The position numbers and the translations under genes are program-made. Positions 545-17,231 of a stretch of DNA of 24,000 nucleotides are shown here, piece by piece. The stretch covers positions 6,158-30,157 of the forward strand of contig JAUWOE010000009.1 in assembly GCA_030612265.1 (NCBI GenBank), given 5' to 3'. The notes beneath the pieces were generated by a model, which had not been told where the DNA came from, ran no database searches, and saw nothing but the letters and a program-made list of their open reading frames with translations. How positions within the stretch are numbered: position 1 is the stretch's first letter; the number at the start of each line of letters is the position of its first letter. The DNA comes from Promethearchaeum sp. Its GTDB lineage: Archaea > Asgardarchaeota > Lokiarchaeia > Sigyniarchaeales > Promethearchaeaceae.

Positions 545-1559
545 TATTAAATAAAGGTTTAAGAATTTTTACATAATGGTCTCGAATTGAATATTCTGCT
601 ATTTTCATTGCATTTGAAGCAATTTTTTGAGTTAAAATTGATTTTGTTTCATAATCTTTTGCCAATAATTTATCTGCACAATAAACTGTTGCACTTGCTA
701 GAATAAAAGGGTTCCATGACCGTTTCCTTCCTTTATTAATGGTTTTTATTATAAATTTGCATTTATTTTCTAAAAGGTTTTTATAAACTATCATAGTCCA
801 AAGAGATTTTTTCTTTTGCATCCTATTTATAACTTCAGGTGAGTTTACAATCGAATTGATAAATCTTGCGATGAAATCTTCACTTTTATGAGGATGGTTT
901 TTCTTTTTTAGAAATTTCTGATATTCAATACTGTCTCTTATAATTAATCTTGGGCTAACTCTATGGCCCAACATGGTAAATATTTTGCATATTTCACGAA
1001 TACTAACTGGAGCATTAGAGCAAAATTCTCTCGAAGCATAAAAAATACAAAAACCAATTAATGAGATATGATTTCGAATGGATGGAGCTTTATGCTTAAT
1101 TGATTGATAATAATAGGCTGCATGATTCTTTACTATTGAAGATAGCCTTAAATATTTAGTTATATTATTTAATATTCTTAAAATTCTATAATCTGTTTCA
1201 TGATTTTTTATTTTTATTGGAAAAGTGTATGTTTTTAATTTTCTGAATTTCTTTTGATAATTTGATGAAATTACTTTATGTTTATAATCACTAAATACTT
1301 TTGTGGAGAAATAATCAATATGACTTCCTAGAGTACAAATATTATCAACAGTTTTTCCAATAGAAACAAATTGATCCCCTGTCGATAAATCTGAATTAAT
1401 TGTGTCATTAAATTGAAAGCTATCTACAAATAAAACAGAATCAATAACTAAACCGCAATTTACACAAACTCTTTCATGTCCATTTTGAATAAAATTAGCT
1501 TTACATTCTGGACAAATGTTTGAATTTTTCTGATTAATAAAATATTGGGATTGAAACAA
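531..1559 (-). CDS. tfb: Transcription initiation factor TFB (TFIIB-like), divergent paralogue
   Basis: N-terminal Zn ribbon CPEC-x12-CVNC followed by GLVIDS. Cyclin-fold-like repeats are present (NHAAYYYQSI...ISLIGFCIFYASREF...SIREICKIF). The only possible start is TTG at 1559, because an in-frame TGA lies three codons upstream and no later start precedes the Zn ribbon. Confidence 0.75.
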   Translation of the reverse strand: MFQSQYFINQKNSNICPECKANFIQNGHERVCVNCGLVIDSVLFVDSFQFNDTINSDLSTGDQFVSIGKTVDNICTLGSHIDYFSTKVFSDYKHKVISSNYQKKFRKLKTYTFPIKIKNHETDYRILRILNNITKYLRLSSIVKNHAAYYYQSIKHKAPSIRNHISLIGFCIFYASREFCSNAPVSIREICKIFTMLGHRVSPRLIIRDSIEYQKFLKKKNHPHKSEDFIARFINSIVNSPEVINRMQKKKSLWTMIVYKNLLENKCKFIIKTINKGRKRSWNPFILASATVYCADKLLAKDYETKSILTQKIASNAMKIAEYSIRDHYVKILKPLFNTNNL

Positions 1560-1754
1560 AAGAAATCACTTTAGATTTCTTTATCATTTTGTATTTAATT
1601 AAATTTTCAGACCTAAGTTTTTCTTTAATATTAAGTATTGTTTCATTAGTTGAATATATTATACTTACTCTTTGAGAGGTAACTGAAAATAAAAATTATC
1701 AGATTTCCCTGAAAATGTAGATCCTTTAATAATTTAAATTGAAAAAATCAATTA

Positions 1755-2918
1755 ATGGTTCAAAAAAGACCAACTATTTTAGACTTTCAAATTGAAAATC
1801 ATCTTATATACTATAAATTTCCAAAATTTTATGTGGGATTTTATTCTATTCGCATATATGCTACCAATATTATGGATTCTTTAACTAAAATATTAAAAAA
1901 AACCTTAAACAAAGAAAATATTTTTGGGGTAATTGATATATGCGGAGAAAATACCTTTTTATTTATTAAATTTAAAAATAAATCTATAAAAGCAATTTTG
2001 AATTATAAAAAAAGCATCTTAATGAGTTTATCTACAATAAAAAAAAAATTTTTTAAATTGCTGGCGGAGAAAGAATTGGAAAACTCTTTTTTTTATTTTG
2101 TTGATTTTAGTCAAATGAAGAATGTCCATATTTCAATTAATAAAAAAGAAAAATATATCTCCTTAATTGATTATAAAATTGCCATAGAACAAAATATTTT
2201 CAAATTTAAAGTTGAAAATTCCTTTTTTAAAGAAAATCGGATAAGACAATTAATATTGTTTTTTAGAACTATGAAAATCAAAGGATATTTCTTATTTTCT
2301 TATAAATCTGATGATTTTTTAAAATTATCTTTCATTTTAATATCAAATTCTTATGAAAAATTGATAAATTTTCTAAATTTTAATAAATCATTACCATTAA
2401 AATCGCATTTGAAATTAGTGGAAATCTCCAGATATGATTTTATTAATTTAATAAAAAGGAAACAACTTTCTAATTCATCTTTAATAGAAAATAGTGATTT
2501 TTATCATTATTTAAAAATTATTAATTCTACCAAGCAAATAAAACAAGATTTAAAGAAAAACGCAAATTTTGAAAAAATAAATAAAAAATCCCTTAGAAAA
2601 AAAATTATTACTATTTTAAACGAATTGTTAATTAGCTTTACAATTAACTCAAAATCTGATATTTTAATTAATCCCTTTAAAATACGAGTTTTAATTTTAG
2701 AAAATAATTTCAATTTGTTATTGAACTATTTTAGAAATCAAGAATATTACATAAATCATACAATTTTATTTTTTTCGATTAAAGATGAACAAAAAGCATT
2801 AATAGAAAACACGAGCATTAAGAAATTACAAAGAATTGAAATTTTTTCTAAAGATGATTTAGATTCATTTAGGTTTTTTTTAAATCAACGTAAAAATTTA
2901 GTATTAACCAATTTTTGA
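1755..2918 (+). CDS. Hypothetical protein (387 aa, Lys/Asn/Phe/Ile-rich), no recognisable domain
   Basis: Long ATG-initiated ORF in an otherwise stop-rich AT-rich context, divergent from tfb. I recognise no motifs. Confidence 0.5.
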   Translation: MVQKRPTILDFQIENHLIYYKFPKFYVGFYSIRIYATNIMDSLTKILKKTLNKENIFGVIDICGENTFLFIKFKNKSIKAILNYKKSILMSLSTIKKKFFKLLAEKELENSFFYFVDFSQMKNVHISINKKEKYISLIDYKIAIEQNIFKFKVENSFFKENRIRQLILFFRTMKIKGYFLFSYKSDDFLKLSFILISNSYEKLINFLNFNKSLPLKSHLKLVEISRYDFINLIKRKQLSNSSLIENSDFYHYLKIINSTKQIKQDLKKNANFEKINKKSLRKKIITILNELLISFTINSKSDILINPFKIRVLILENNFNLLLNYFRNQEYYINHTILFFSIKDEQKALIENTSIKKLQRIEIFSKDDLDSFRFFLNQRKNLVLTNF

Positions 2919-2989
2919 GCAATAAAAAAGGATGAAGGTTTTTTTATATTTTATGATAAAAAATAAAAACTTTCAAGAATTTATAGAAA

Positions 2990-3265
2990 TGATCGTGGGG
3001 ATTTAGGCAATCCCTTGAAGCCCTATATTGGGTGGAGCCATGCCTATAATGGACTGAAAAAACTTTGAAAATTTATGAATTAAATAAAAGAAATTATTTT
3101 ACTAGTCTATGAAACATTCGCTTTTTGAGATGGATTAGGTTAAAGCTTTTCCTGTAGAGAAAAAGTAATTAACTTAGAGGACAAAATCGGCTAGGCCAGG
3201 GATGGAGCAACCGTAAGTTCACTAATTCATGCACAATTAGTGGGGTGCTGAGACCCAAAATAATT
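2990..3265 (+). ncRNA. Signal recognition particle RNA (archaeal 7S/SRP RNA); S-domain core is secure, outer boundaries are uncertain
   Basis: This is a GC-rich island in AT-rich DNA.
- 3188-3213 reads CGGCT-AGG-CCA-GGGA-TGG-AGCA-ACCG. That is the universal SRP helix-8 apex: GNRA tetraloop GGGA, CCA/TGG closing pairs, the AGG/AGCA symmetric loop, and a CGG(C)T/ACCG stem.
- A long hairpin at 3135-3177 (TTAGGTTAA...TTAACTTAG) sits where helix 6 belongs.
- GGUGCUGA at 3244-3251 resembles the conserved helix-5 3' strand.
- The 5' hairpins (GGGAT-ttaGGCa-ATCCC and CCAT-GCCtata-ATGG) have complementary GGC/GCC loops, as in an Alu domain. Confidence 0.65.
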
Positions 3266-3378: not shown

Positions 3379-3861
3379 ATGAAAAATATCGAAGTTGATC
3401 CAATTAATTTCCAATTAAAAATAAAAAATTCACAACTCCCATTAGTTTTACTACGACCTTATGATCTATTTGAATTTCATTTGTTATTGCACACAAATAT
3501 AGAAGATTCATTATATAAAATTGGGAGTTTAATTGGAGATTTCCTTTGGACATCTTTAGAACCAAAATTAAAAAAGAAGAATTTTGAATCACAGATAAAA
3601 CATCTTATAGATTTATTGTATCAATTAGGTTTCGGAAAATTATTTTTTACGAAAAAAAAAGAAATTATTAATATTTCTATCAATTCCCTCATACTATGGA
3701 TTAAATATCCCTCAGATATTTCATTGAAATCAATTGCCAATTTCTATTTTGGTCTTATTCAATATTTTTTTAAAGAGAATAAAATAATTGATAAGGAAAA
3801 ATATGATATAAATCATGAGAAGAATAACTTTAAATTATATTTCCATATAAAGAAAGGATGA
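3379..3861 (+). CDS. V4R-like domain protein (cysteine-less variant)
   Basis: The pattern matches V4R: PLVLLRPYDLFEFHLLL...SLYKIGSLIGDFLWTSL...LIDLLYQLGFGKLFF...INISINS. It lacks the C-terminal Cys triad. Its stop overlaps the next start (ATGA at 3858-3861). Confidence 0.55.
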   Translation: MKNIEVDPINFQLKIKNSQLPLVLLRPYDLFEFHLLLHTNIEDSLYKIGSLIGDFLWTSLEPKLKKKNFESQIKHLIDLLYQLGFGKLFFTKKKEIINISINSLILWIKYPSDISLKSIANFYFGLIQYFFKENKIIDKEKYDINHEKNNFKLYFHIKKG

Positions 3862-4343
3862 AAATGAAAGAACTTATAAATAAAGATGACGGTTTATCTT
3901 TTTGTGAAGAAAATATTATCCTGGTCCCTGTGGATATCATTTCCTCCCTTGGATCAATTTTTAATACTGGCTCAAAACCTATTATTCAATATTTAGGAAA
4001 GAATTTTGGTAGATTTCTTGCTGAAAAATGTGATTCTCAATATGAAACTAAAGATCTTAAAAAATTTTCAAATAATTTTCTTAAAATGGCAAGTATAACA
4101 GGTTGGGGAAAGTTTACATTAATATTTTTGAATGATGAAGAAATAACAATAAAATTGTACAATAATATCGCAACTTTTAATAAACAAGAGAAAAAATTTA
4201 TCTGTTCTTATATTCTTGGACTTCTAAAAGGTTTCGGAGAATATATAATGAAAAATGTAAATGTATTAGAAACAAAGTGTTCAATTGAGAACCCTAACAA
4301 TCAATATTGTGAATTTCTGATAAAAAAAAAAATTAAACTATAG
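3858..4343 (+). CDS. V4R (4-vinyl reductase / TRAPP Bet3-like) domain protein
   Basis: Motifs: IILVPVDIISSLGSIF...IIQYLGKNFGRFLAEK...ITGWGKFTLIF...ITIKLYNN. The V4R Cys pattern is present as C116...ETKC141-x9-C151EF (CSYILGLLKGFGEY...ETKCSIENPNNQYCEFLI). Confidence 0.7.
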   Translation: MKMKELINKDDGLSFCEENIILVPVDIISSLGSIFNTGSKPIIQYLGKNFGRFLAEKCDSQYETKDLKKFSNNFLKMASITGWGKFTLIFLNDEEITIKLYNNIATFNKQEKKFICSYILGLLKGFGEYIMKNVNVLETKCSIENPNNQYCEFLIKKKIKL

Positions 4344-4350
4344 ATTTATT

Positions 4351-4725
4351 TTATATTAAATCCATTAATGTAAAAAAGAAATTTATTATTAATAACGTTA
4401 AACTCAAAATTTTAAAAATTTTTACTTGAATTTCGATTTCAATGATTATTCCAAGATATTCTAAAGAAACTTCAGTAATTCCTTGGAAATTTAGCATTAA
4501 ATCTAAAAAATAATTTATATTATATGAAATTTCTTCACTAATTTGAAAAATTAAAAGGGTACATCCAATTTCAATCATAAAGATCATCATTTTTGGAAGA
4601 AAATCTGGTAAAATTAGAATAAAAAAACTTAAAATCACTATTATTAAGAAAACAGATGTGATTAAAACGATTTTTTTGTCAGTTTCAAAAAAAAATATTG
4701 ATAGAAATTCAATATTTTGAATCAA
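4351..4725 (-). CDS. Small hydrophobic (about 3 TM) protein, last gene of the GTPase operon
   Basis: TTG start lies 6 nt after the mglA-like stop, with AGGT upstream. Hydrophobic segments include IVLITSVFLIIVILSFFILIL, MMIFMIEIGCTLLIF and ILSLTLLIINFFFTL. No homology recognised. Confidence 0.4.
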   Translation of the reverse strand: MIQNIEFLSIFFFETDKKIVLITSVFLIIVILSFFILILPDFLPKMMIFMIEIGCTLLIFQISEEISYNINYFLDLMLNFQGITEVSLEYLGIIIEIEIQVKIFKILSLTLLIINFFFTLMDLI

Positions 4726-4731
4726 TTTAAT

Positions 4732-5304
4732 CTACCTGATGATAATAGATGGAAAGATTAATGATATTATACTTTTGAATGTTTCTGTCACTCCTTTTCC
4801 TGAGAGTGCAATTGTTTCAATTATTTGGGATGTATTAAATTTATTTAACTCGTATTTGTTTAACACTTCATTAATATCTATAATATCGGGTAAATCTCTT
4901 TTATTTAAAGATAATACTATCGGGATTTTAAAAACATTTTCTGCAAAATAATAATTTAATTCTTTCCAAGATTGATAGTTATCATCAAAATATTTTCTTT
5001 GGGAATCTATAACAAAAACAATCCCATCAGTTCCAGATAAAGTAGCAGGTCTTGTAGATGCATAAAAATCTTGCCCAGTTGCAGAATATAATAAAATTTT
5101 TACCATCCATTCACCACCAATCATTTGTAATGTACCAAAATCAAAAAATAAAGTCCTCCCGGTTGTAGTTTCTATGGATGTAAGTTCTCCATTTTTTCCA
5201 AATTTATTAAATAAGCTTTTCAAACTAGTTGTTTTCCCTGATAAAGCACAGCCATAATATACAATTTTAATCTGGATCAATTTTGTTTTATAATTAACAA
5301 TCAT
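4732..5304 (-). CDS. mglA: MglA-family small Ras-like GTPase
   Basis: - N-terminus and G1: NYKTKLIQIKIVYYGCALSGKTT (compare MglA INY...KIVYYGPGLSGKTT).
- Switch I: GRTLFFDFG.
- G3: LLYSATGQDFY, with Ser in place of the canonical Asp as in MglA TVPGQ.
- G4: NKRDL. G5: ALSGKG.
- I prefer the ATG at 5304, which lies 4 nt after the upstream stop with GGGGT upstream. The ORF-track start at 5328 is a TTG. Confidence 0.85.
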   Translation of the reverse strand: MIVNYKTKLIQIKIVYYGCALSGKTTSLKSLFNKFGKNGELTSIETTTGRTLFFDFGTLQMIGGEWMVKILLYSATGQDFYASTRPATLSGTDGIVFVIDSQRKYFDDNYQSWKELNYYFAENVFKIPIVLSLNKRDLPDIIDINEVLNKYELNKFNTSQIIETIALSGKGVTETFKSIISLIFPSIIIR

Positions 5305-5308
5305 TTTT

Positions 5309-6208
5309 TTAACCCCATAGACTTTCAAACGTATCTGTAAAATTTGATGATTTTTTTGAATTCAAAAATGTCTTAAAATCCATATTCCATTCTTGCATTA
5401 TAAAATTTAAAATTCTTTCAATTGAAGATTGATTATATGCGATTGTAGAAAATAAAGTCTTACTAGAAATGTTTGTAGGATAACCTAAAACTTCTAAATT
5501 CTTCATACGAGATAAAATATTCAAAGTTCTTTTAGATGCCAAATAAAAATCCGATATTTCCTTTTTTATGATGTTTTCCTTTAATTCCATCTCTTCAAAA
5601 TAAAAATTCATTATATTTTCGTATTGTTCATTTAAAATTTTTTTTGTATTTATCCTTTTAGAGATAATTCTTTTCATTTTTTCAATTGCGACTTCCGTAT
5701 GATTTATTGCATTCTGATATAATGATTTTTCAAATGAAATATCCAATTTAATACCGTTATTCCCTTCTTTTATAGGTTTTAAAGTATTTTTATGAATATT
5801 GATGAGTAAGAATTGAGAACTTGCCCTATTTAAAACCTTAAATAATTTATTTAGAGTAGGTCTATTTTCGACATTATTAGTGCATCCAATAATCCAAAAA
5901 TTAAAATTGCTAAATAAGCTAATTGCTTTTTCTAAAGCAAAAGGATAACAGAGAAAAACATTTCTCTGAATTTCCATGTCATACTCTTCAGATTCAAGTA
6001 AATTATTATAATCATCAAGATCAACAAAATCTGTATAAAATATCATGATATTGCGGAATGATATTAGATTTGTTAATCCATTTATTATATTTTCCACATC
6101 TTCTTCATTTGAACTAATGATCACTATTGGGATCCTATCTAAAAGACAATGTAAGATTAATGCGATGTCTTCATTTTTTGAGCTTGTAAACAATTCAATT
6201 AGGTTCAT
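5309..6208 (-). CDS. Hypothetical protein between the Roadblock and MglA genes; N-terminal alpha/beta half with core-DENN-like motifs and a helical C-terminal half (assignment tentative)
   Basis: ATG with AAGGAGA Shine-Dalgarno upstream. It is tightly packed in the operon (17 nt after the Roadblock gene, 4 nt before mglA). ALILHCLLDRIPIVIISSNEEDVENIINGLTNLI resembles the DENN-core consensus LL-E-R-R-hhhh-SS-x-L-S-x-L-x(6)-L; YPFAL and FWIIGC follow later. Confidence 0.7.
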   Translation of the reverse strand: MNLIELFTSSKNEDIALILHCLLDRIPIVIISSNEEDVENIINGLTNLISFRNIMIFYTDFVDLDDYNNLLESEEYDMEIQRNVFLCYPFALEKAISLFSNFNFWIIGCTNNVENRPTLNKLFKVLNRASSQFLLINIHKNTLKPIKEGNNGIKLDISFEKSLYQNAINHTEVAIEKMKRIISKRINTKKILNEQYENIMNFYFEEMELKENIIKKEISDFYLASKRTLNILSRMKNLEVLGYPTNISSKTLFSTIAYNQSSIERILNFIMQEWNMDFKTFLNSKKSSNFTDTFESLWG

Positions 6209-6225
6209 ATAAATTATCTCCTTAT

Positions 6226-7230
6226 TTAAAAAATTAATTCTGTAAACATCTTCTCTAAATTTAGATTTTCAGGATTTATTTCGTACTTTCGAGCTTCTTC
6301 CAATACAGTAGTAATTTTTTTACAGTATCTTGGTATGATTAACCGAAGTAAGCCTAGTTTCTGCCTCCCTTTACCAATTTCAATGGAAAATATATTTGAA
6401 TCAACCTTATTAATAAATTGAAATTTATCAACACATTCTAATAGGATTGAATTCACATGCATTTTTTTTAATAACCAAGCACATTTATCTGCTGTTTTAA
6501 AAAGTGAATACCCCATTGTAGCTTCAGAATCTAATTTATTTTGATCTATTTTTGATTGAGGATAGCTAGAAACAACAAAACCACCCTCAATTGAAATGTA
6601 AGATTTAATTAGGTCAAGGGTTTGATTACCAAGATCCCGTAGAATGTTATCTAATTCCAAATATATTCTTGGAGGGATATTTAAGGAAAATAATTGTATT
6701 TTTTCATTTTTTTTTATATCTTCTCTAACATCTGAGGCTCCGATAATTTCATCTATGTTTTTTTTTGAAAAATGCCGTAAAGGTGGTTTAAATGTTTCCC
6801 CAGAAAGAATCAGGGATTTTTTTATTTCAATTAAACTATTACGAGTTTTTAGAAATATCCCTCCTAAATTTATCATATTTTGAGCAGAGATAGCAATAAA
6901 GAAATCATTATCATTTCCTTGTAAACCCTGTGCTCGAATAATTTTGTTTAGAGTTGGACTCCCGTAATTCTTCAGTGGAAATAATAAAATTTTTCCTTTA
7001 TTCCCTTCAATTAAAATATATTTTAAATTTTGCTTATGAAGTTCAATTCCGCAATTATAAATAGCAGATGTAGCTGCAGATATACTGAAAATCTCATCTT
7101 TTGAAAACCAAATTCCAGTGTAATGAATTGGATTTCCATCTCTTTGCGTTAAAACAACATTTTCAACGCCTCTTGTAGCTTTTATTTTCTCAAGATTTCT
7201 CTTTACTTCATCTTGGAGTTTAATTATAAT
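6226..7230 (-). CDS. Tandem Roadblock/LC7 (MglB-like) protein; the true start is upstream of the ATG at 6876
   Basis: - The ORF-track product (6226-6876) contains a Roadblock domain (ISIEGGFVVSS...ATMGYSLFKTADKCAWLL...ILLECVDKFQFINKV...).
- The same frame stays open to 7230 and encodes a second complete Roadblock domain: IIIKLQDEVKRNLEKIKATRGVENVVLTQRDGNPIHYTG...EIFSISAATSAIYNCG...YILIEGNKGKILLFPL...FFIAISAQNMINLGG.
- The ATG at 6876 therefore falls inside that domain.
- GGGTGA (SD-like) and TTTAAATA (TATA-like) lie upstream of 7230. Confidence 0.7.
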   Translation of the reverse strand: MIIKLQDEVKRNLEKIKATRGVENVVLTQRDGNPIHYTGIWFSKDEIFSISAATSAIYNCGIELHKQNLKYILIEGNKGKILLFPLKNYGSPTLNKIIRAQGLQGNDNDFFIAISAQNMINLGGIFLKTRNSLIEIKKSLILSGETFKPPLRHFSKKNIDEIIGASDVREDIKKNEKIQLFSLNIPPRIYLELDNILRDLGNQTLDLIKSYISIEGGFVVSSYPQSKIDQNKLDSEATMGYSLFKTADKCAWLLKKMHVNSILLECVDKFQFINKVDSNIFSIEIGKGRQKLGLLRLIIPRYCKKITTVLEEARKYEINPENLNLEKMFTELIF

Positions 7231-7856: not shown

Positions 7857-9350
<1,494 letters not shown>

Positions 9351-9463
9351 ACAACATTTCTATGGGTTTAATGCCCATAGATCTTCTTTTTATTTTTTTT
9401 AGTTCTTTTCATATTTAATAAGATATAAATTTTCATTAGTATTTTCTATTTTTTTAATATATT

Positions 9464-9536
9464 GGGCCCATGGCTCAGTTGGTAGAGCACCTGACTTGCA
9501 CTCAGGGGGTCGGGGATTCAAATTCCCCTGGGTCCA
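9464..9536 (+). tRNA. tRNA-Ala (UGC)
   Basis: 73-nt cloverleaf: acceptor GGGCCCA/TGGGTCC with the G3:U70 Ala identity pair, anticodon loop CTTGCAC, T-loop TTCAAAT, discriminator A. No CCA is encoded. Confidence 0.95.
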
Positions 9537-9800
9537 TTAATTATAATATGATCCATTTCAAAAATAAGAAATATTAAGTAAGTGAGTTTTTGAAAATATG
9601 TACCAAAATTTTTTAATTATTTCAGAGAGTCTTAGAATTAGTATGTTTTTTCCACTTAAAATATCTGATTGGGATATGGAACAGTATAAATTAATACTGC
9701 AGCTATTTAGCATAGTTTTAATAGTTGTTATGTTGGTTTATATCGCTTTATCATCACGTGATAATGAATAAATGAATAAATAATTAAATTATTAGATTTA

Positions 9801-11039
9801 TTATTTTCCTTTTGAAGCAGAAACGATTCTAACAACATCTTGATTTTGTAAAATGTAAGATTCACCTAATCTCAATTTTGTTCTCCCATTTATTCCATAA
9901 ATAAAGTTTTTTGCTAAATTGGAATGGATTTTTTCATCCACAAATTCTTTTAATTTAGTTCCACTTGTAATAAGATGTGCATCTGGCAACACATTTCCAT
10001 CTTTATCAGAATATGTATTTAGATCATATACTGGATAAACTACAATTTGTTTTAAAACATCAAAGACTGAATAATTTATTATTTTCTGAATTCCTGAACT
10101 ACCAAATTTTTTTAATATTTTTTCTTCAATATTTTGAAGAGCATCTAATTCTTGAGCAGACAAACTTTTTTTATCTAATATCTTGAAATGTGAATCCCCT
10201 GGAAAATATTCAATAATTCCTTTTTCCGCAAATTTTCTTAACCATAATTCTGTTAAAGCACTACATGGAATAGTATTTTTATAAATCTTAGATAATTTTT
10301 TAAAAATTTCTTCACCATTCGGTTTATCTACCTTATTTGCGATAATAATAATTGGTTTTGAAATTTCGCGAAGTTTCGTAGCAAAATGTAAGACATCATT
10401 CTCCTTCCATACTGTTAAATGCTCAAAATCTAAATTAGATGCTTTCATTGCTAAATATATATGATCTTTTCTTACAGAAATCCCTGCCATTCGGTCATAG
10501 AAGACATCAACAAAGCTTAATTTTTCTTGTTCAATTTTGCGTACAAATTTCTGCCAATCCTTTCTTATAAGAATATCTCTAAACCAATAATTTATTTCCT
10601 TCTCTAAAAACTTAATATCTTCAAGTGGATCCCTCGAACCTTCATCAATTTCTTGACCTTCAGCGTCCAAACTTCCAGAAATATCAATCACATGTAATAA
10701 TACATCTGCTCGTGATAAATCAGAAAGAAATTTATTTCCCATCCCTTTTCCGATATGAGCATCTGGAACTAAACCTGCAACGTCTAAAAATTTAACTGGA
10801 ATAAACCTAATGCCATTTTTACAAATCGAATTTTTAGGATTATCTTTTACATTTAATTCTTTACATATACAATCTATTCGAATAAAACCTTTTCCCAAGT
10901 TCGGCTCAATTGTTGTAAAAGGATAATTTCCCACTTTAGCTTCAGTTAAACAAGCAGAATTTAAAAAAGTACTTTTACCTGATGATGGCTTTCCGACTAT
11001 TCCAATCAACATATGGTAAAATATTTTATTAAAACTCAT
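9801..11039 (-). CDS. OBG-family GTPase/ATPase (YchF/DRG-like) with C-terminal TGS domain
   Basis: Motifs: IGIVGKPSSGKSTFLN (G1), NYPFTTIEPNLG (switch I), LDVAGLV (G3), ANKVD (G4), and C-terminal LRLGESYILQNQDVVRIVSA (TGS-like). An alternative start at the ATG at 11012 (MLIGIVGKP) is equally plausible. Confidence 0.85.
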   Translation of the reverse strand: MSFNKIFYHMLIGIVGKPSSGKSTFLNSACLTEAKVGNYPFTTIEPNLGKGFIRIDCICKELNVKDNPKNSICKNGIRFIPVKFLDVAGLVPDAHIGKGMGNKFLSDLSRADVLLHVIDISGSLDAEGQEIDEGSRDPLEDIKFLEKEINYWFRDILIRKDWQKFVRKIEQEKLSFVDVFYDRMAGISVRKDHIYLAMKASNLDFEHLTVWKENDVLHFATKLREISKPIIIIANKVDKPNGEEIFKKLSKIYKNTIPCSALTELWLRKFAEKGIIEYFPGDSHFKILDKKSLSAQELDALQNIEEKILKKFGSSGIQKIINYSVFDVLKQIVVYPVYDLNTYSDKDGNVLPDAHLITSGTKLKEFVDEKIHSNLAKNFIYGINGRTKLRLGESYILQNQDVVRIVSASKGK

Positions 11040-11080: not shown

Positions 11081-13663
11081 TTAGTACGTCTGAGAATTCT
11101 CTTGGATAAGAAGTTTTTGGATTTCGCTTTCAATTTTGGCAAATACTGTCATTAAATTATCACGTTCAAAATTATTATCGTTTTTAATTGTAGTTCTCAC
11201 TATATTTAATTTATTTATTTTTCTATAGAACTCATTTAATTCTTTTTTAAATGATTGAGCCTCAGCTGTAATTAGCTTTCTATTTTCTTTTAATTCTTCC
11301 GAATTGTCGATATAAAAGGCCATATATCTCGTTTTATTTGATTTTAATCTATTTATGAAATTTCTAGCTAAATTAATAATTTCTTTAGGCATTTCTCTCG
11401 CAGAATATTTTTTCTTGTCATACAAAATTACAAATTCTAAGAGTTCTTTATTTCCTCTAGCCCAATTAGACTCAATTTCAAATATATATATATATATTTG
11501 ATAATTCTCAATTGAAACATTCATTTCACCCATATTAACATCCAAATACTTGGGAATTTGCCTTTCAATTTCTTCATTAACAATAGTAGAACCAATCTGA
11601 TAATATTTTTCTGGTCCGATTATTCTATGAAAATAATAAAAACTTACATCAAACATTCCATTTTGATTATCAGATTTCGTTTTTTGCTCGTACTTATTTT
11701 TCTCCTCTTTTCTTACGTCTATTTCATTGAGATTCTTTGAAGATTTATTCGTCAATTCTTTAAATTCATTAAAAATGTTCTTAAGATTATCCAAAGAAAA
11801 TAAAGCTTCGTGTGAAGTAATTGTCTTGGTCTTATTATATTTATCTATTAGTTTTATAAAGAATGAAGTGTTTTTACATAAAATTGAGTATTTCCAATAG
11901 AAATCTTTAGAAATTTTTTCATAAAAATTTATTATATTGCTAAATTCAGGGATTTTAAGGAAATTTCGATATTTTTGAACTAATTCTTTAAATGTCTGAA
12001 TGATTTCTCTTACACTTTGTTCATATTTTTCCTCTTTATTCAATTTTTCAGCTTCTTTTATCAAACTCTCAATTCTATTATTAATTATTTGAAGAGGAGA
12101 TGAACATACTTTATGTTTAATAACTTCTATAGGATCATTTGTTATATAATCTGCTTTCGATTCTTTTATTTTTCGATTATTTACTTTTTTCAAATTTTTA
12201 GTCCCTCTTTTTAATAATTTTATATTATTTGTATTTTTAATTTTTAACAAAAAAGCATCAGGAATTGAGTCAATTTTTGCTAAACAATACCCTGTTATTA
12301 GTTCATTGGCCTTTAATGGAAAATTACTTTGAAATCCAAGAAAATGAATAACGTCTTCATTTTTTTCATTAAATTTAAAAAAAAATTTAGATCCAGAATT
12401 TCTAATAATGTTTTTACTTATATCCAAAGTTGTGGTTAAAGTTATCAGAGCTTCCCCTTTACCACGAAGAAGCATCGCTATATCTTCTAAATATGTCGAA
12501 ATCTTTGTAGTTTCTAACATCTTTTTTGATGCAATATAAGAAGCATCTTCAAAGATTGTTAAGTGCTCTAATTCGTTTGTAGGTCTTTTTTTCATATTAT
12601 ATTCCCAAATCCATTTTAAAACTAAATTCGCAAAAAAAATCACATCTTCTTTTGAACCACCTAAATTTAAAATGTTCCCTAAATCGATTATGCAATTTTT
12701 CTTCAATAAATCAGATATTTTTTTTGTTTTTGAAGAAAAGTTAAAGAGACTTTTTAGTGGACCATCATAATACCTCCTTAATCGATTAGTTATACTAATA
12801 ATTGTTTGATTTAATTGTGGGATATCGTTTTTTTTTTTTTCAGTATAGATTTTAAGGATTTTAAAGAAATAATCCCAAGACTGCATTTTTTTATTAGAGC
12901 ATACTATTCTTAATGTATCAATTAGAACTTTTTCCATCTGAGGAGAGAAATCGCTATTGGATTCTATGATTTGACAAGATTTTAAAGCATCAAATAAGAT
13001 CTCAACATAATTATCTTCTGGGAAAATGTCATTATCAAATGGATTAAAGTAAAAATTTAATCCAGGTCGAATAACGTTGATGGATTTCACATCTTTCATA
13101 AGCTCCTTATATTCACCTTTAAATTCAAATAAAATAAAAGGAATATTTGGATATTTCTTTTCAAACTGATGAAGGAAATTATTAAGAAGAGTAGTTTTAC
13201 CCGTTCCAGTTTGACCATAAATTATTATATGTCTTTTCAAATCTTCGATATTGAGTTTAAACTTCTTAAGAATTTCCCGATTATAAAAAATTGTTCCTAA
13301 ATTTATAGTCCCTTTACTATAATTCTTAAAATCTGGTTTTTCAAGCTCTATTGAAGGAATTTTTTTTTGTTTTAGAATTATTTTTAATATTAAATTATAT
13401 AAAAAAATAATAATTGTAAAAATTGTTAACAAAAAATCAATTTTTAAGAGATTAAAAAATTTTAAACTCCAAAATATTAATGAGAAAAGAAACGCAATCT
13501 GATATATCATAAAAATTTCTTTTATTCTTATCAGAAATCGACTTTGAAGTGAACAATGCTGAGCAATTAAAAGGAAAATTCCTATTAGATCTGTCAAAAT
13601 AGAAAAAATGTACCAAAGATCTCCCCTGAAAATTAGAATATAAATAATTGGTATATTTTCCAT
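11081..13663 (-). CDS. Membrane-anchored HerA/FtsK-superfamily (DUF87-like) P-loop ATPase with a long coiled-coil and a longin-like C-terminal extension
   Basis: - ATG with AGGAAGGT upstream.
- About 3-4 N-terminal TM helices (IFSILTDLIGIFLLIA, IAFLFSLIFWSL, LLTIFTIIIFLYNLILKII).
- GTINLGTIF...LKRHIIIYGQTGTGKTTLLNNFL (Walker A) and HLTIFEDASYIA (Walker B-like).
- The C-terminal ~350 aa are helical, followed by the FYYFHRIIGPEKYY...IYIYIFEIESNWARGNKELLEFVILYD module. Confidence 0.8.
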   Translation of the reverse strand: MENIPIIYILIFRGDLWYIFSILTDLIGIFLLIAQHCSLQSRFLIRIKEIFMIYQIAFLFSLIFWSLKFFNLLKIDFLLTIFTIIIFLYNLILKIILKQKKIPSIELEKPDFKNYSKGTINLGTIFYNREILKKFKLNIEDLKRHIIIYGQTGTGKTTLLNNFLHQFEKKYPNIPFILFEFKGEYKELMKDVKSINVIRPGLNFYFNPFDNDIFPEDNYVEILFDALKSCQIIESNSDFSPQMEKVLIDTLRIVCSNKKMQSWDYFFKILKIYTEKKKNDIPQLNQTIISITNRLRRYYDGPLKSLFNFSSKTKKISDLLKKNCIIDLGNILNLGGSKEDVIFFANLVLKWIWEYNMKKRPTNELEHLTIFEDASYIASKKMLETTKISTYLEDIAMLLRGKGEALITLTTTLDISKNIIRNSGSKFFFKFNEKNEDVIHFLGFQSNFPLKANELITGYCLAKIDSIPDAFLLKIKNTNNIKLLKRGTKNLKKVNNRKIKESKADYITNDPIEVIKHKVCSSPLQIINNRIESLIKEAEKLNKEEKYEQSVREIIQTFKELVQKYRNFLKIPEFSNIINFYEKISKDFYWKYSILCKNTSFFIKLIDKYNKTKTITSHEALFSLDNLKNIFNEFKELTNKSSKNLNEIDVRKEEKNKYEQKTKSDNQNGMFDVSFYYFHRIIGPEKYYQIGSTIVNEEIERQIPKYLDVNMGEMNVSIENYQIYIYIFEIESNWARGNKELLEFVILYDKKKYSAREMPKEIINLARNFINRLKSNKTRYMAFYIDNSEELKENRKLITAEAQSFKKELNEFYRKINKLNIVRTTIKNDNNFERDNLMTVFAKIESEIQKLLIQENSQTY
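11482..11497. repeat. (AT)8 dinucleotide repeat inside the ATPase CDS
   Basis: Read directly: atatatatatatatat. It encodes IYIYI on the minus strand. Confidence 0.9.
12828..12840. repeat. T13 (A13 on the coding strand) homopolymer inside the ATPase CDS
   Basis: Read directly: 13 consecutive T. It encodes the Lys run in EKKKND on the minus strand. Confidence 0.9.
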
Positions 13664-16229: not shown

Positions 16230-17231
16230 ATGAGCGTCCGAGAAACTTTAGTAAAACATTTATCAACTATTTTAAGATCATCCAAAGCTACAATAATGGC
16301 ATTATTATCTGATGAAAATGGACTTTCAATAGCGAAAACAGGTCGAAATACTGATTTAAACCTAGATAGTAATGCAATCACCAGCGTATCGTCTGCTGCT
16401 TTTTCTTCGAGTGAAGAGAATTGGTTTGATCTTGGAATTCAAAGACAAATAATCGCATTTTCATTTTTCGAGAAGATTTGTCTAATAACTGTACGAATAC
16501 AACAAACTCTTCTAACTATTGTTCATGATTACAATCAAGAATGGCCACTTAATGCAGATAATATTGGATCCAGCATATTTCATCTTAGAAAAGAAATCGA
16601 GAACTTTTTTGGTTCAGGGAAGGTAAATAATGATGAAATTGAATTATTTAGTAATAATGTCCGTAGTGCGATATATCTCTGCGGTATGGGCTCTGAAATT
16701 CCTTTAACTTCTTATATTCCTCCTGCTCCAGAACAAAAAGAATTAATTGAAAATATTAGTGAAATATTAGATTCTGTTCAAACTCCCGTATTTTTAAATT
16801 ATGGCTTAGTTAATTCTTCTGGATTAAATATTGATGCTAGATCAATTGATCCAGATAAATTTTCAATCCCTGTTGATGCATTTAGTGCAAATGCCAATGT
16901 GGGATTTCAAAAAATGATTGAAGAAGCAGATTCCTTAAAACTTGGTGGTTTAGTTTCGTACTTATGTGTTTCTGGAAATGATCCAGATAATTTCTATGGG
17001 ATTCTATGCAACCCAAGTGGAAAAATGGCTTTTACAGATAAAGAAACAGGAAGTTATATTAGTCAACCAATTACCTTTGTATCTTTATTCCCACTAACAT
17101 ATGGTGCGATTCCAGTTTTAAGTGAAGCAAGAAATATTGTTCATTCTATAATTGGTATTATTGGAAACGATGAAATAACCGAGAGATTTATCAATAGTGT
17201 TAACGCAATTGAAAAAACGAAGTATCAATAA
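16230..17231 (+). CDS. Tandem Roadblock/LC7-like protein (second in the window)
   Basis: The N-terminal domain reads LVKHLSTILRSSKATIMALLSDENGLSIAKTG...AITSVSSAAFSS...IIAFSFFEKICLITVRI..TLLTIVHD. The second half repeats the helix/beta-beta/helix pattern: ELIENISEILDSVQTPVFLNYGLVNSSGLNIDARS...VDAFSANANVGFQKMIEEA...VSYLCVSG. Confidence 0.65.
   Translation: MSVRETLVKHLSTILRSSKATIMALLSDENGLSIAKTGRNTDLNLDSNAITSVSSAAFSSSEENWFDLGIQRQIIAFSFFEKICLITVRIQQTLLTIVHDYNQEWPLNADNIGSSIFHLRKEIENFFGSGKVNNDEIELFSNNVRSAIYLCGMGSEIPLTSYIPPAPEQKELIENISEILDSVQTPVFLNYGLVNSSGLNIDARSIDPDKFSIPVDAFSANANVGFQKMIEEADSLKLGGLVSYLCVSGNDPDNFYGILCNPSGKMAFTDKETGSYISQPITFVSLFPLTYGAIPVLSEARNIVHSIIGIIGNDEITERFINSVNAIEKTKYQ

Follow-up and report, generated by a model that had tools for sequence, protein, structure and literature searches.

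The locus considered here raises the question of what is carried at the C-terminus of a membrane ATPase of Lokiarchaeia, and whether this part of the protein may act on a small GTPase. The analyzed DNA is a stretch of 24,000 nucleotides (nt) from Promethearchaeum sp. (assembly GCA_030612265.1, contig JAUWOE010000009.1, positions 6,158 to 30,157), hereafter the window, by which the whole stretch is meant. A complete open reading frame (ORF) of 860 amino acids (aa), located at 11081..13663 on the minus strand, encodes a transmembrane (TM) anchor, a HerA/FtsK-type ATPase, a helical linker, a longin domain and a C-terminal helix. The initial annotation of this DNA, made from the letters alone, had likened residues 670–790 to the longin-like modules of FLCN, SMCR8 and uDENN proteins; these residues correspond to nt 11294-11656 of the window, and the quoted text of residues 670–751, MFDVSFYYFHRIIGPEKYY...NYQIYIYIFEIESNWARGNKELLEFVILYDKK, was found letter for letter in the translation. 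Within the last ~190 residues of the ATPase lies a true longin domain, which belongs to the NPRL2/FLCN/SMCR8 class ('GAP-longin', GAP standing for GTPase-activating protein).

This assignment is carried by the fold. The longin domain, aa 672-818 (11210..11650, minus strand), is supported by the AlphaFold2 fold, Foldseek and a profile search. The isolated domain, supplied with an alignment of 95 sequences (19–36% identical to the query, save for five close relatives at 61–79%), was modelled by AlphaFold2 with a predicted local distance difference test score (pLDDT) of 95.8 and a predicted template modelling score (pTM) of 0.90. The topology of the model, β1β2-α1-β3β4β5-α2-α3, is that of the longin α-β-α sandwich, with β1 at residues 672-679, β2 at 683-690, α1 at 697-709, β3 at 712-718, β4 at 721-731, β5 at 739-749, α2 at 760-775 and α3 at 788-818 (in model numbering, strands 5-12, 16-23, 45-51, 54-64 and 72-82, and helices 30-42, 93-108, 112-117 and 121-151). 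A first AlphaFold2 model, obtained from a seven-sequence alignment, was poor (pLDDT 50) and was excluded from the fold search.

In the Foldseek search against PDB, the best structural match was NPRL2/Npr2, the catalytic subunit of GATOR1/SEACIT and a Rag GAP: GATOR1/SEAC chains were on top with E 2e-5 to 4e-4 and probability 1.00, among which 8adl_S was verified as Npr2 and 6ces_N as NPRL2, the rest being consistent with NPRL2 by entry and length. The FLCN chains 6nzd_H and 6ulg_L came next (E ~1e-3, probability 1.00), and the lower ranks were occupied by FNIP2, the Lst4 longin, DENND10, Asgard Rag-like GTPases, VAMP7 longins and Roadblock domains. The longin fold expected by the initial annotation was thus recovered, in the class that it had named; the nearest relatives are NPRL2-type rather than FLCN, and no DENN domain follows. 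Two other assignments were considered and rejected. A Roadblock/LC7 (MglB-type) domain, with the expected order α-β-β-α-β-β-β, was ruled out by the longin topology of the model, and Roadblock-containing chains (LokiRagM and the C-terminal domains of LAMTOR/Rag) stood far below NPRL2 and FLCN in the ranking. A full FLCN-like architecture was ruled out because there is neither space nor signal for a DENN domain behind the longin: in the ~40 residues past α3 (aa 819-860) one conserved helix is present, with no Pfam match and no DENN or NPRL2-specific C-terminal domain.

At the sequence level, the links to NPRL2 and FLCN are weak and point in the same direction as the fold. A word-indexed homology search with the isolated C-terminus gave only six close fragments, and a PDB sequence search with the shallow profile yielded noise only (e.g., HMG-CoA reductase, PRPP synthetase). 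The exhaustive search with the longin profile, covering 1.84 billion cluster representatives, retrieved 117 proteins at E<=1e-3, including 30 at E<=1e-10; most of them are 150-450 aa long with the domain at the N-terminus, and nine are 700-950 aa long with the domain near the C-terminus. When the profile of the longin family was compared with 177,635 PDB sequences, the top match was NPRL2, in the segment β1-GP-β2 (E 0.11). NPRL2 is also the best profile match: the alignment with verified human NPRL2 by hhalign covers the β1-GP-β2-α1 region (E 6.2e-5, probability 65%, 36 columns). With verified human FLCN, E was 0.048 over 29 columns, and the segment IFEIESNWARG paired with the R164 block of FLCN. 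The Pfam model Folliculin (PF11704) matched the window longin exactly over the block with the arginine motif, with E 0.0095 and 16.2 bits, which is under the gathering cut-off of 23.3; it matched 6/95 members of the family, and weak, below-threshold matches to Pfam Afi1 were recorded in 6/95 members.

The family signature can be written as SYF-x3-IGP ... FEI-x-S-x-WARG-x-KE ... YKAFY, and the residues F678, G683, P684, S732, R736, E740 and Y784 are each at least 90% conserved in the 95-sequence alignment. The FLCN-like F-x-x-x-x-GP and ARG blocks pointed out by the initial annotation are therefore in place. The 'GP motif' G683-P684 (11612..11617, minus strand) forms the first two residues of β2 (model residues 16-17); its glycine is conserved in 93/95 and its proline in 90/95 members, and in the hhalign alignment it pairs with G20-P21 of NPRL2. 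The candidate arginine finger R736 (11456..11458, minus strand), in the context S-x-W-A-R-G-x-K-E, is located in the β4-β5 loop (model residue 69, loop 65-71), is conserved in 89/95 members and is aligned with FLCN R164. Arginine R78 of NPRL2, within ...IEHKKYSRNALLF (sequence verified), lies in the β4-β5 loop, at the same place as R736; its role in NPRL2 is said to have been addressed by Shen et al. in 2019. In the longin of FLCN, a RagC/D GAP with R164 as its finger, the fold is the same, F-x-I-x-[DE]-S-x(1,2)-A-R-G is in register and a GP turn follows β1.

Both motifs are retained in 102 members family-wide and both are missing from 12, while four have GP only and five have Arg only (Fisher p = 7e-10, uncorrected for phylogeny). 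Since they are kept or lost together, this pattern suggests that GP and Arg make up one functional site. According to PMC12290439, the GP motif and the arginine finger are common to FLCN, NPRL2, SMCR8/C9orf72 and one class of Asgard longins, the FLCN/SMCR8-type; the position of GP in FLCN, NPRL2, SMCR8 and C9orf72 is that of G683-P684, and the initial annotation's reading of the FLCN arginine as an arginine finger agrees with this source. GAP longins have the combination of GP and the β4-β5 Arg, and it does not occur in FNIP2, NPRL3, adaptins, TRAPP or DENND proteins (PMC12290439). An arginine in the β4-β5 loop is also used by monomeric longin/DENN GAPs (Avl9, Afi1, DENND6A/B, DENND11), which have no second longin subunit (10.64898/2026.01.05.697756).

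Differences from all these systems were also evident. Unlike NPRL2, the window protein lacks the NPRL2-specific C-terminal domain, and a partner resembling NPRL3 or DEPDC5 was not identified for it; its longin is joined to a TM-anchored HerA/FtsK ATPase at the C-terminal end of the latter, and the identity is only ~14-19%. Unlike FLCN, it has neither a DENN domain nor the long β2-α1 insert, and no FNIP-like partner was identified. Monomeric DENN GAPs contain full DENN modules, whereas the window protein corresponds to the longin part only, and DENN structures stand below NPRL2 and FLCN in the fold ranking.

The longin domain class itself has already been described in Asgards. Abundant NPRL2-like longin domains, some fused to two-component signalling domains, were reported by Liu et al. 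(10.1101/2020.10.19.343400). In a Pfam scan of 105 full-length representatives of the family retrieved here, Arf/Ras/Roc domains were found in 12, PAS in six, HATPase_c in three, HisKA in two and V4R in three; others carry zinc ribbons or TIR. Because PAS and histidine-kinase fusions occur in the same family, the window longin is assigned to the expanded Asgard 'NPRL2-like longin' family of Liu et al., of which ~100 standalone or fused proteins were retrieved. The Asgard longins of this type described so far (Liu et al. 2021; PMC12290439) occur alone or in fusions with two-component, DENN or GTPase domains; a fusion to a TM-anchored HerA/FtsK ATPase was not found in the searched texts.

At least 10 representatives consist of an N-terminal longin and a C-terminal small GTPase, with GP and Arg kept. 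These are eight proteins of ~320 aa (P0045, P0047, P0064, P0068, P0069, P0072, P0074 and P0112), P0098 of 1772 aa and P0119 of 833 aa. The GTPase parts were identified by the Pfam scan together with a check of the P-loop and NKxD motifs, phmmer with the MglA-like GTPase of the window being too insensitive; they match Pfam Arf/Ras/Roc, and the spacing from the P-loop to NKxD is ~105 residues. The order of domains is opposite to that of Rag GTPases, in which an N-terminal GTPase is followed by a C-terminal Roadblock. Judged by domain composition, these proteins are a Rosetta-stone link between the GAP-type longin class and small GTPases.

What appears to be new is the way in which the parts are combined: a single protein runs from three TM segments through a HerA/FtsK ATPase and a helical linker to the longin, behind which a conserved terminal helix is placed. 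Scanning for orthologs, with one genome per species, revealed 80 loci, every one of them in Asgards. The short form of 550-610 aa, comprising the TM anchor, the ATPase, a short tail and the conserved amphipathic C-terminal helix, is present in most Asgards (Loki, Hermod, Hod, Odin). In the long form of 700-950 aa, the ATPase is separated from the terminal helix by a helical linker, which is variable, and by the longin. This form was confined to Lokiarchaeales-like genomes, with P. syntrophicum MK-D1, L. ossiferum and Harpocratesius among them. At least 26 cluster representatives share the TM-ATPase-longin architecture, as do the two Lokiarchaeia in culture; identity of the window protein to the orthologs of P. 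syntrophicum MK-D1 and L. ossiferum is 69% and 45%. Comparison of the two forms indicates that, in the Lokiarchaeales lineage, the longin and the linker were inserted between the ATPase core and the terminal helix of an older, Asgard-wide TM-anchored ATPase.

Names of the homologs in databases are only 'ATP-binding protein', 'DUF87' or 'hypothetical', with no longin domain recorded, and the NCBI/ENA entry that is 100% identical to the 860-aa protein (P0123) carries no name. The literature search found no paper joining Asgard, HerA and longin, the supplementary tables of Liu et al., a possible place of listing, being outside this search. The fusion of a longin to a membrane ATPase, which the initial annotation had called unusual, thus appears to be undescribed and unannotated. 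In one contig from a metagenome-assembled genome (MAG) (L070, 3-3187), the ATPase ORF (3-1295) and an ORF for the linker and longin with GP and SRG (1307-3187) occupy separate frames; the fusion may be split in nature, or else a frameshift or an error of assembly is responsible.

The motifs are not retained in all long forms. Among the 26 long-form representatives, 17 keep Arg together with GP (GE in one of them, P0026), and nine have neither motif while keeping the domain and the same syntenic position. Motif-less long forms include the loci L005 5677-8223, L007 5932-8511 and L008 5986-8538 and the proteins P0095 and P0132-P0139, with Harpocratesius repetitus among them; the domain is still recognizable in them by …FKGFFL / VFLGYNL…. 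By their motif content, they are natural 'pseudo-GAP' versions of the protein.

The reading favoured here, to which a probability of roughly one half is given, is that the longin-bearing ATPase is a membrane-tethered GAP, or at least a nucleotide-state-specific dock, for a small GTPase of the Ras superfamily. The ATPase would form a membrane-embedded ring and present the longin domains at the cytoplasmic face, where each of them would bind a Ras-superfamily small GTPase (Arf-, Rag- or MglA-like). Arginine R736 would reach from the β4-β5 loop into the nucleotide pocket, the pocket being shaped by the adjacent G683-P684 turn, and its insertion would probably stimulate GTP hydrolysis. In this way, a small-GTPase switch could be linked to whatever the ATPase translocates.

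Several observations weigh against this reading. In eukaryotes, FLCN, NPRL2 and SMCR8 work in longin heterodimers and have a DENN domain or another domain at the C-terminus, and for the window protein neither a partner longin nor a DENN domain was identified. No small GTPase is encoded immediately beside the ATPase gene; the nearest is an MglA-like gene ~6 kb off, which has Roadblock and DENN-like partners of its own. Similarity to the eukaryotic families stays under curated thresholds, as noted for Pfam Folliculin (16.2 vs 23.3 bits). Arginine R736 could be structural, e.g., paired with the equally conserved E740. Finally, nine of the 26 syntenic long forms are without GP and Arg, so the basic role of the ATPase needs neither motif.

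A less probable explanation is that the longin is a non-catalytic scaffold or dimerization module, which would pair with a neighbouring longin (of the same ring or of a standalone paralog) or recruit a partner, the Arg/GP surface serving folding or protein contact, possibly as an adaptor or a platform of the guanine nucleotide exchange factor (GEF) type, as in TRAPP, Mon1-Ccz1 and SRα-SRX. Most longin domains are indeed platforms or parts of GEFs rather than GAPs (PMC12290439), and longins of VAMP7, Lst4 and FNIP2 are also among the fold matches; the top matches, however, are the catalytic subunits NPRL2 and FLCN and not platform longins. The conservation of E740, equal to that of R736 and compatible with a structural salt bridge, and the persistence of the domain in 9/26 syntenic orthologs without both motifs would suit a scaffold. 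On the other hand, the pair of GP and the β4-β5 Arg marks GAP longins and is missing in FNIP2, NPRL3, adaptins, TRAPP and DENND (PMC12290439), and the joint loss of GP and Arg suggests a single functional site.

The second alternative concerns the gene located next to the ATPase. It encodes a YchF-related (YGR210-type, Obg-family) GTPase with a TGS domain (9801..11039, minus strand), recognized by NCBIfam PRK09602 with 505 bits (cut-off 387) and by Pfam YGR210-like_G4, MMR_HSR1 and TGS. It starts 41 nt downstream of the ATPase gene on the same strand, or 68 nt downstream if the second Met is used, and the OBG-type GTPase reported there by the initial annotation is thereby confirmed. The same-strand adjacency of the ATPase and the GTPase was found in ~60 of the 80 Asgard loci, with a gap of ~30 nt and with overlapping genes in L022, L033, L042 and L060. 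It belongs to a conserved block, present in ~60/80 loci, of a tandem-Roadblock protein, Tsr3, a thermosome gene on the minus strand, the ATPase and the YchF-related GTPase.

That the longin regulates this adjacent and probably co-transcribed GTPase, as its GAP or membrane dock, is very unlikely. The short distance and the conserved adjacency, with small gaps or overlaps, do argue for a functional link between the ATPase and the GTPase. However, the short forms, which have no longin, show the same adjacency as the long forms; the pairing therefore predates the fusion and is independent of it, and provides no evidence of a GAP-substrate pair. The Obg-type neighbour as the substrate of the longin was accordingly dropped as a leading idea. 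Since the entire block is syntenic, the linkage may also partly be inherited gene order. The YchF-related GTPase has a hydrophobic residue behind the G3 glycine (DVAGL), as is typical of Obg/YchF GTPases, which are not known to use Arg-finger GAPs, and the Rosetta-stone fusions of the longin family involve Arf/Ras-type and not Obg-type GTPases. The YchF-related neighbour is a housekeeping protein. The ATPase itself may work with it or be co-expressed with it, and their adjacency suggests an unexplored, Asgard-specific ATPase-GTPase pair.

The idea that the resemblance arose by chance or from the composition of an AT-rich genome, the C-terminus being a low-complexity tail, has a negligible probability: the GC content of ~26%, the richness of the protein in K, N, I and E, the sub-threshold single-sequence Pfam and PDB matches and the poor seven-sequence model would fit it, but it is refuted by the 117 homologs of the exhaustive search, the high-confidence fold from the deep alignment, the Foldseek probability of 1.00 to NPRL2/FLCN and motif columns invariant at 19-36% identity to the query.

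For the reading as a membrane-tethered GAP or GTPase dock, a far-reaching extension can be formulated, namely that a membrane-ring ATPase of Lokiarchaeales carries an active GAP-longin which couples a small-GTPase switch to ATP-driven membrane translocation or remodelling and is a forerunner of the lysosomal GATOR1/FLCN/C9orf72 platforms; in this strong form, it is rather unlikely. Asgards encode many small GTPases and longin/Roadblock proteins. Through the fusion, a longin of the NPRL2/FLCN type, whose GP/Arg site is intact and looks catalytic, is fixed at the membrane. If the longin is an active GAP, membrane-tethered longin GAPs would predate eukaryotes, a point relevant to how the lysosome-associated GATOR1, FLCN and C9orf72 systems arose, and the protein would give experiments a first access to the processes under the control of Asgard small GTPases. 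If it is inactive, the fusion would be a further case of the domain shuffling already documented for Asgard signature proteins. As the fusion is present in P. syntrophicum MK-D1 and L. ossiferum, the two Lokiarchaeia in culture, localization, pull-down and GAP assays are feasible, and the motif-less orthologs and the longin-less short form represent natural controls.

The N-terminal part of the protein shows the features of a membrane-anchored P-loop ATPase, as the initial annotation had supposed. The membrane anchor, aa 1-100 (13364..13663, minus strand), contains three hydrophobic segments at ~16-34, 49-67 and 78-96, called by the Kyte-Doolittle scale with a 19-residue window and a threshold of >=1.6; its sequence is variable and its hydrophobicity is kept in all orthologs. 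The ATPase core of the FtsK/HerA superfamily, aa 113-475 (12239..13327, minus strand), matched Pfam DUF87/HerA with E 5.4e-11 and 43.5 bits (cut-off 23.2) and TrwB_AAD_bind with 26.6 bits (cut-off 20.5), both above threshold; the FtsK_SpoIIIE model was under its cut-off for the window ATPase and is recorded for many homologs. The core contains the Walker A motif GQTGTGKT (aa 150-157; nt 13193-13216, minus strand) and the Walker B motif TIFED (aa 369-373; nt 12545-12559, minus strand), and the top PDB sequence match of the ATPase is HerA 4d2i (E 5e-5). By these two motifs and the above-threshold model matches, the protein is assigned to the FtsK/HerA superfamily. Nearly all of the 119 columns invariant over nine ATPase orthologs are inside the core.

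The linker, aa 476-667 (11663..12238, minus strand), is mostly helical, rich in Lys, Glu and Asn, and variable; among orthologs it is of low conservation and differing lengths, and it is confined to the long form of the family, being absent from the short forms of 550-610 aa. The conserved amphipathic C-terminal helix, aa 838-857, ...FAKIESEIQKLLIQEN... (11093..11152, minus strand), is common to long- and short-form ATPases, with helix prediction of low confidence only; the pattern Φ-x-x-Φ-x-x-Φ-I-x-x-L-Φ-x-x-E/Q recurs, as judged by eye, in the last 40 residues at ~70 loci of both forms.

FtsK, VirD4/TrwB and HerA share with the window ATPase the N-terminal TM helices and the P-loop ATPase with DUF87/HerA and TrwB_AAD_bind signatures. 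Unlike them, the window ATPase represents a distinct family, restricted to Asgards in the scans so far, situated in a block with the thermosome and the YchF-related GTPase, and having a C-terminal longin in one lineage. Partners in conjugation or DNA repair (NurA, Mre11/Rad50) were not found near the ATPase gene.

In the syntenic block, the tandem-Roadblock candidate is a protein of 333 aa (16230-17231, plus strand), which looks like two Roadblock/LC7 domains; Pfam MAPKK1_Int gave a weak match (E 0.011), and no PDB sequence match was obtained. Its identity exceeds 50% across Loki, Hermod and Hod, and it is always found in the block with Tsr3 and the thermosome.

The MglA-like gene of the window belongs to a row of four genes (4351-6876, minus strand), encoding a Roadblock-like protein of 216 aa (6226-6876), a protein of 299 aa (5309-6208) without a Pfam match, an MglA/Arf-like GTPase (4732-5328) and a small TM protein (4351-4725). 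The label MglA-like, given to this GTPase by the initial annotation, is apt (…LYSATGQDFY…DGIVFVIDSQ), its G3 reading 'SATGQ'. The order of the Roadblock, 299-aa and GTPase genes matches the LAMTOR1-like/DENN/small-GTPase operon of Liu et al. 2021, by which DENN is a candidate identity of the 299-aa protein; the MglA-like GTPase has candidate regulators of its own in the same cluster. The trio of Roadblock, 299-aa and GTPase genes is also located ~2.5 kb beyond the YchF-related gene in L002, L004, L036, L038, L058, L060, L077 and L080.

The window, with a GC content of ~26%, carries an archaeal 16S rRNA gene at 7857-9351, and its proteins share 69-97% identity with their counterparts in Promethearchaeum syntrophicum MK-D1 and a Promethearchaeum MAG, by which the DNA is assigned to a Lokiarchaeial (Asgard) genome. 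The 16S rRNA gene is followed by tRNA-Ala(UGC) (together 7857-9537, plus strand), and the next gene is on the opposite strand; no 23S rRNA gene was found in the remaining 14 kb of the window, and the rRNA genes appear to be unlinked. At 3379-4343 on the plus strand, two adjacent ORFs of ~160 aa overlap by 4 nt, and the second resembles MsvR in its V4R-type C-terminal part, by an NCBIfam match with E 4e-6 that stays far under the cut-off of that family. This pair may be V4R/TRAPPC3-like and thus represent another Asgard class related to trafficking.

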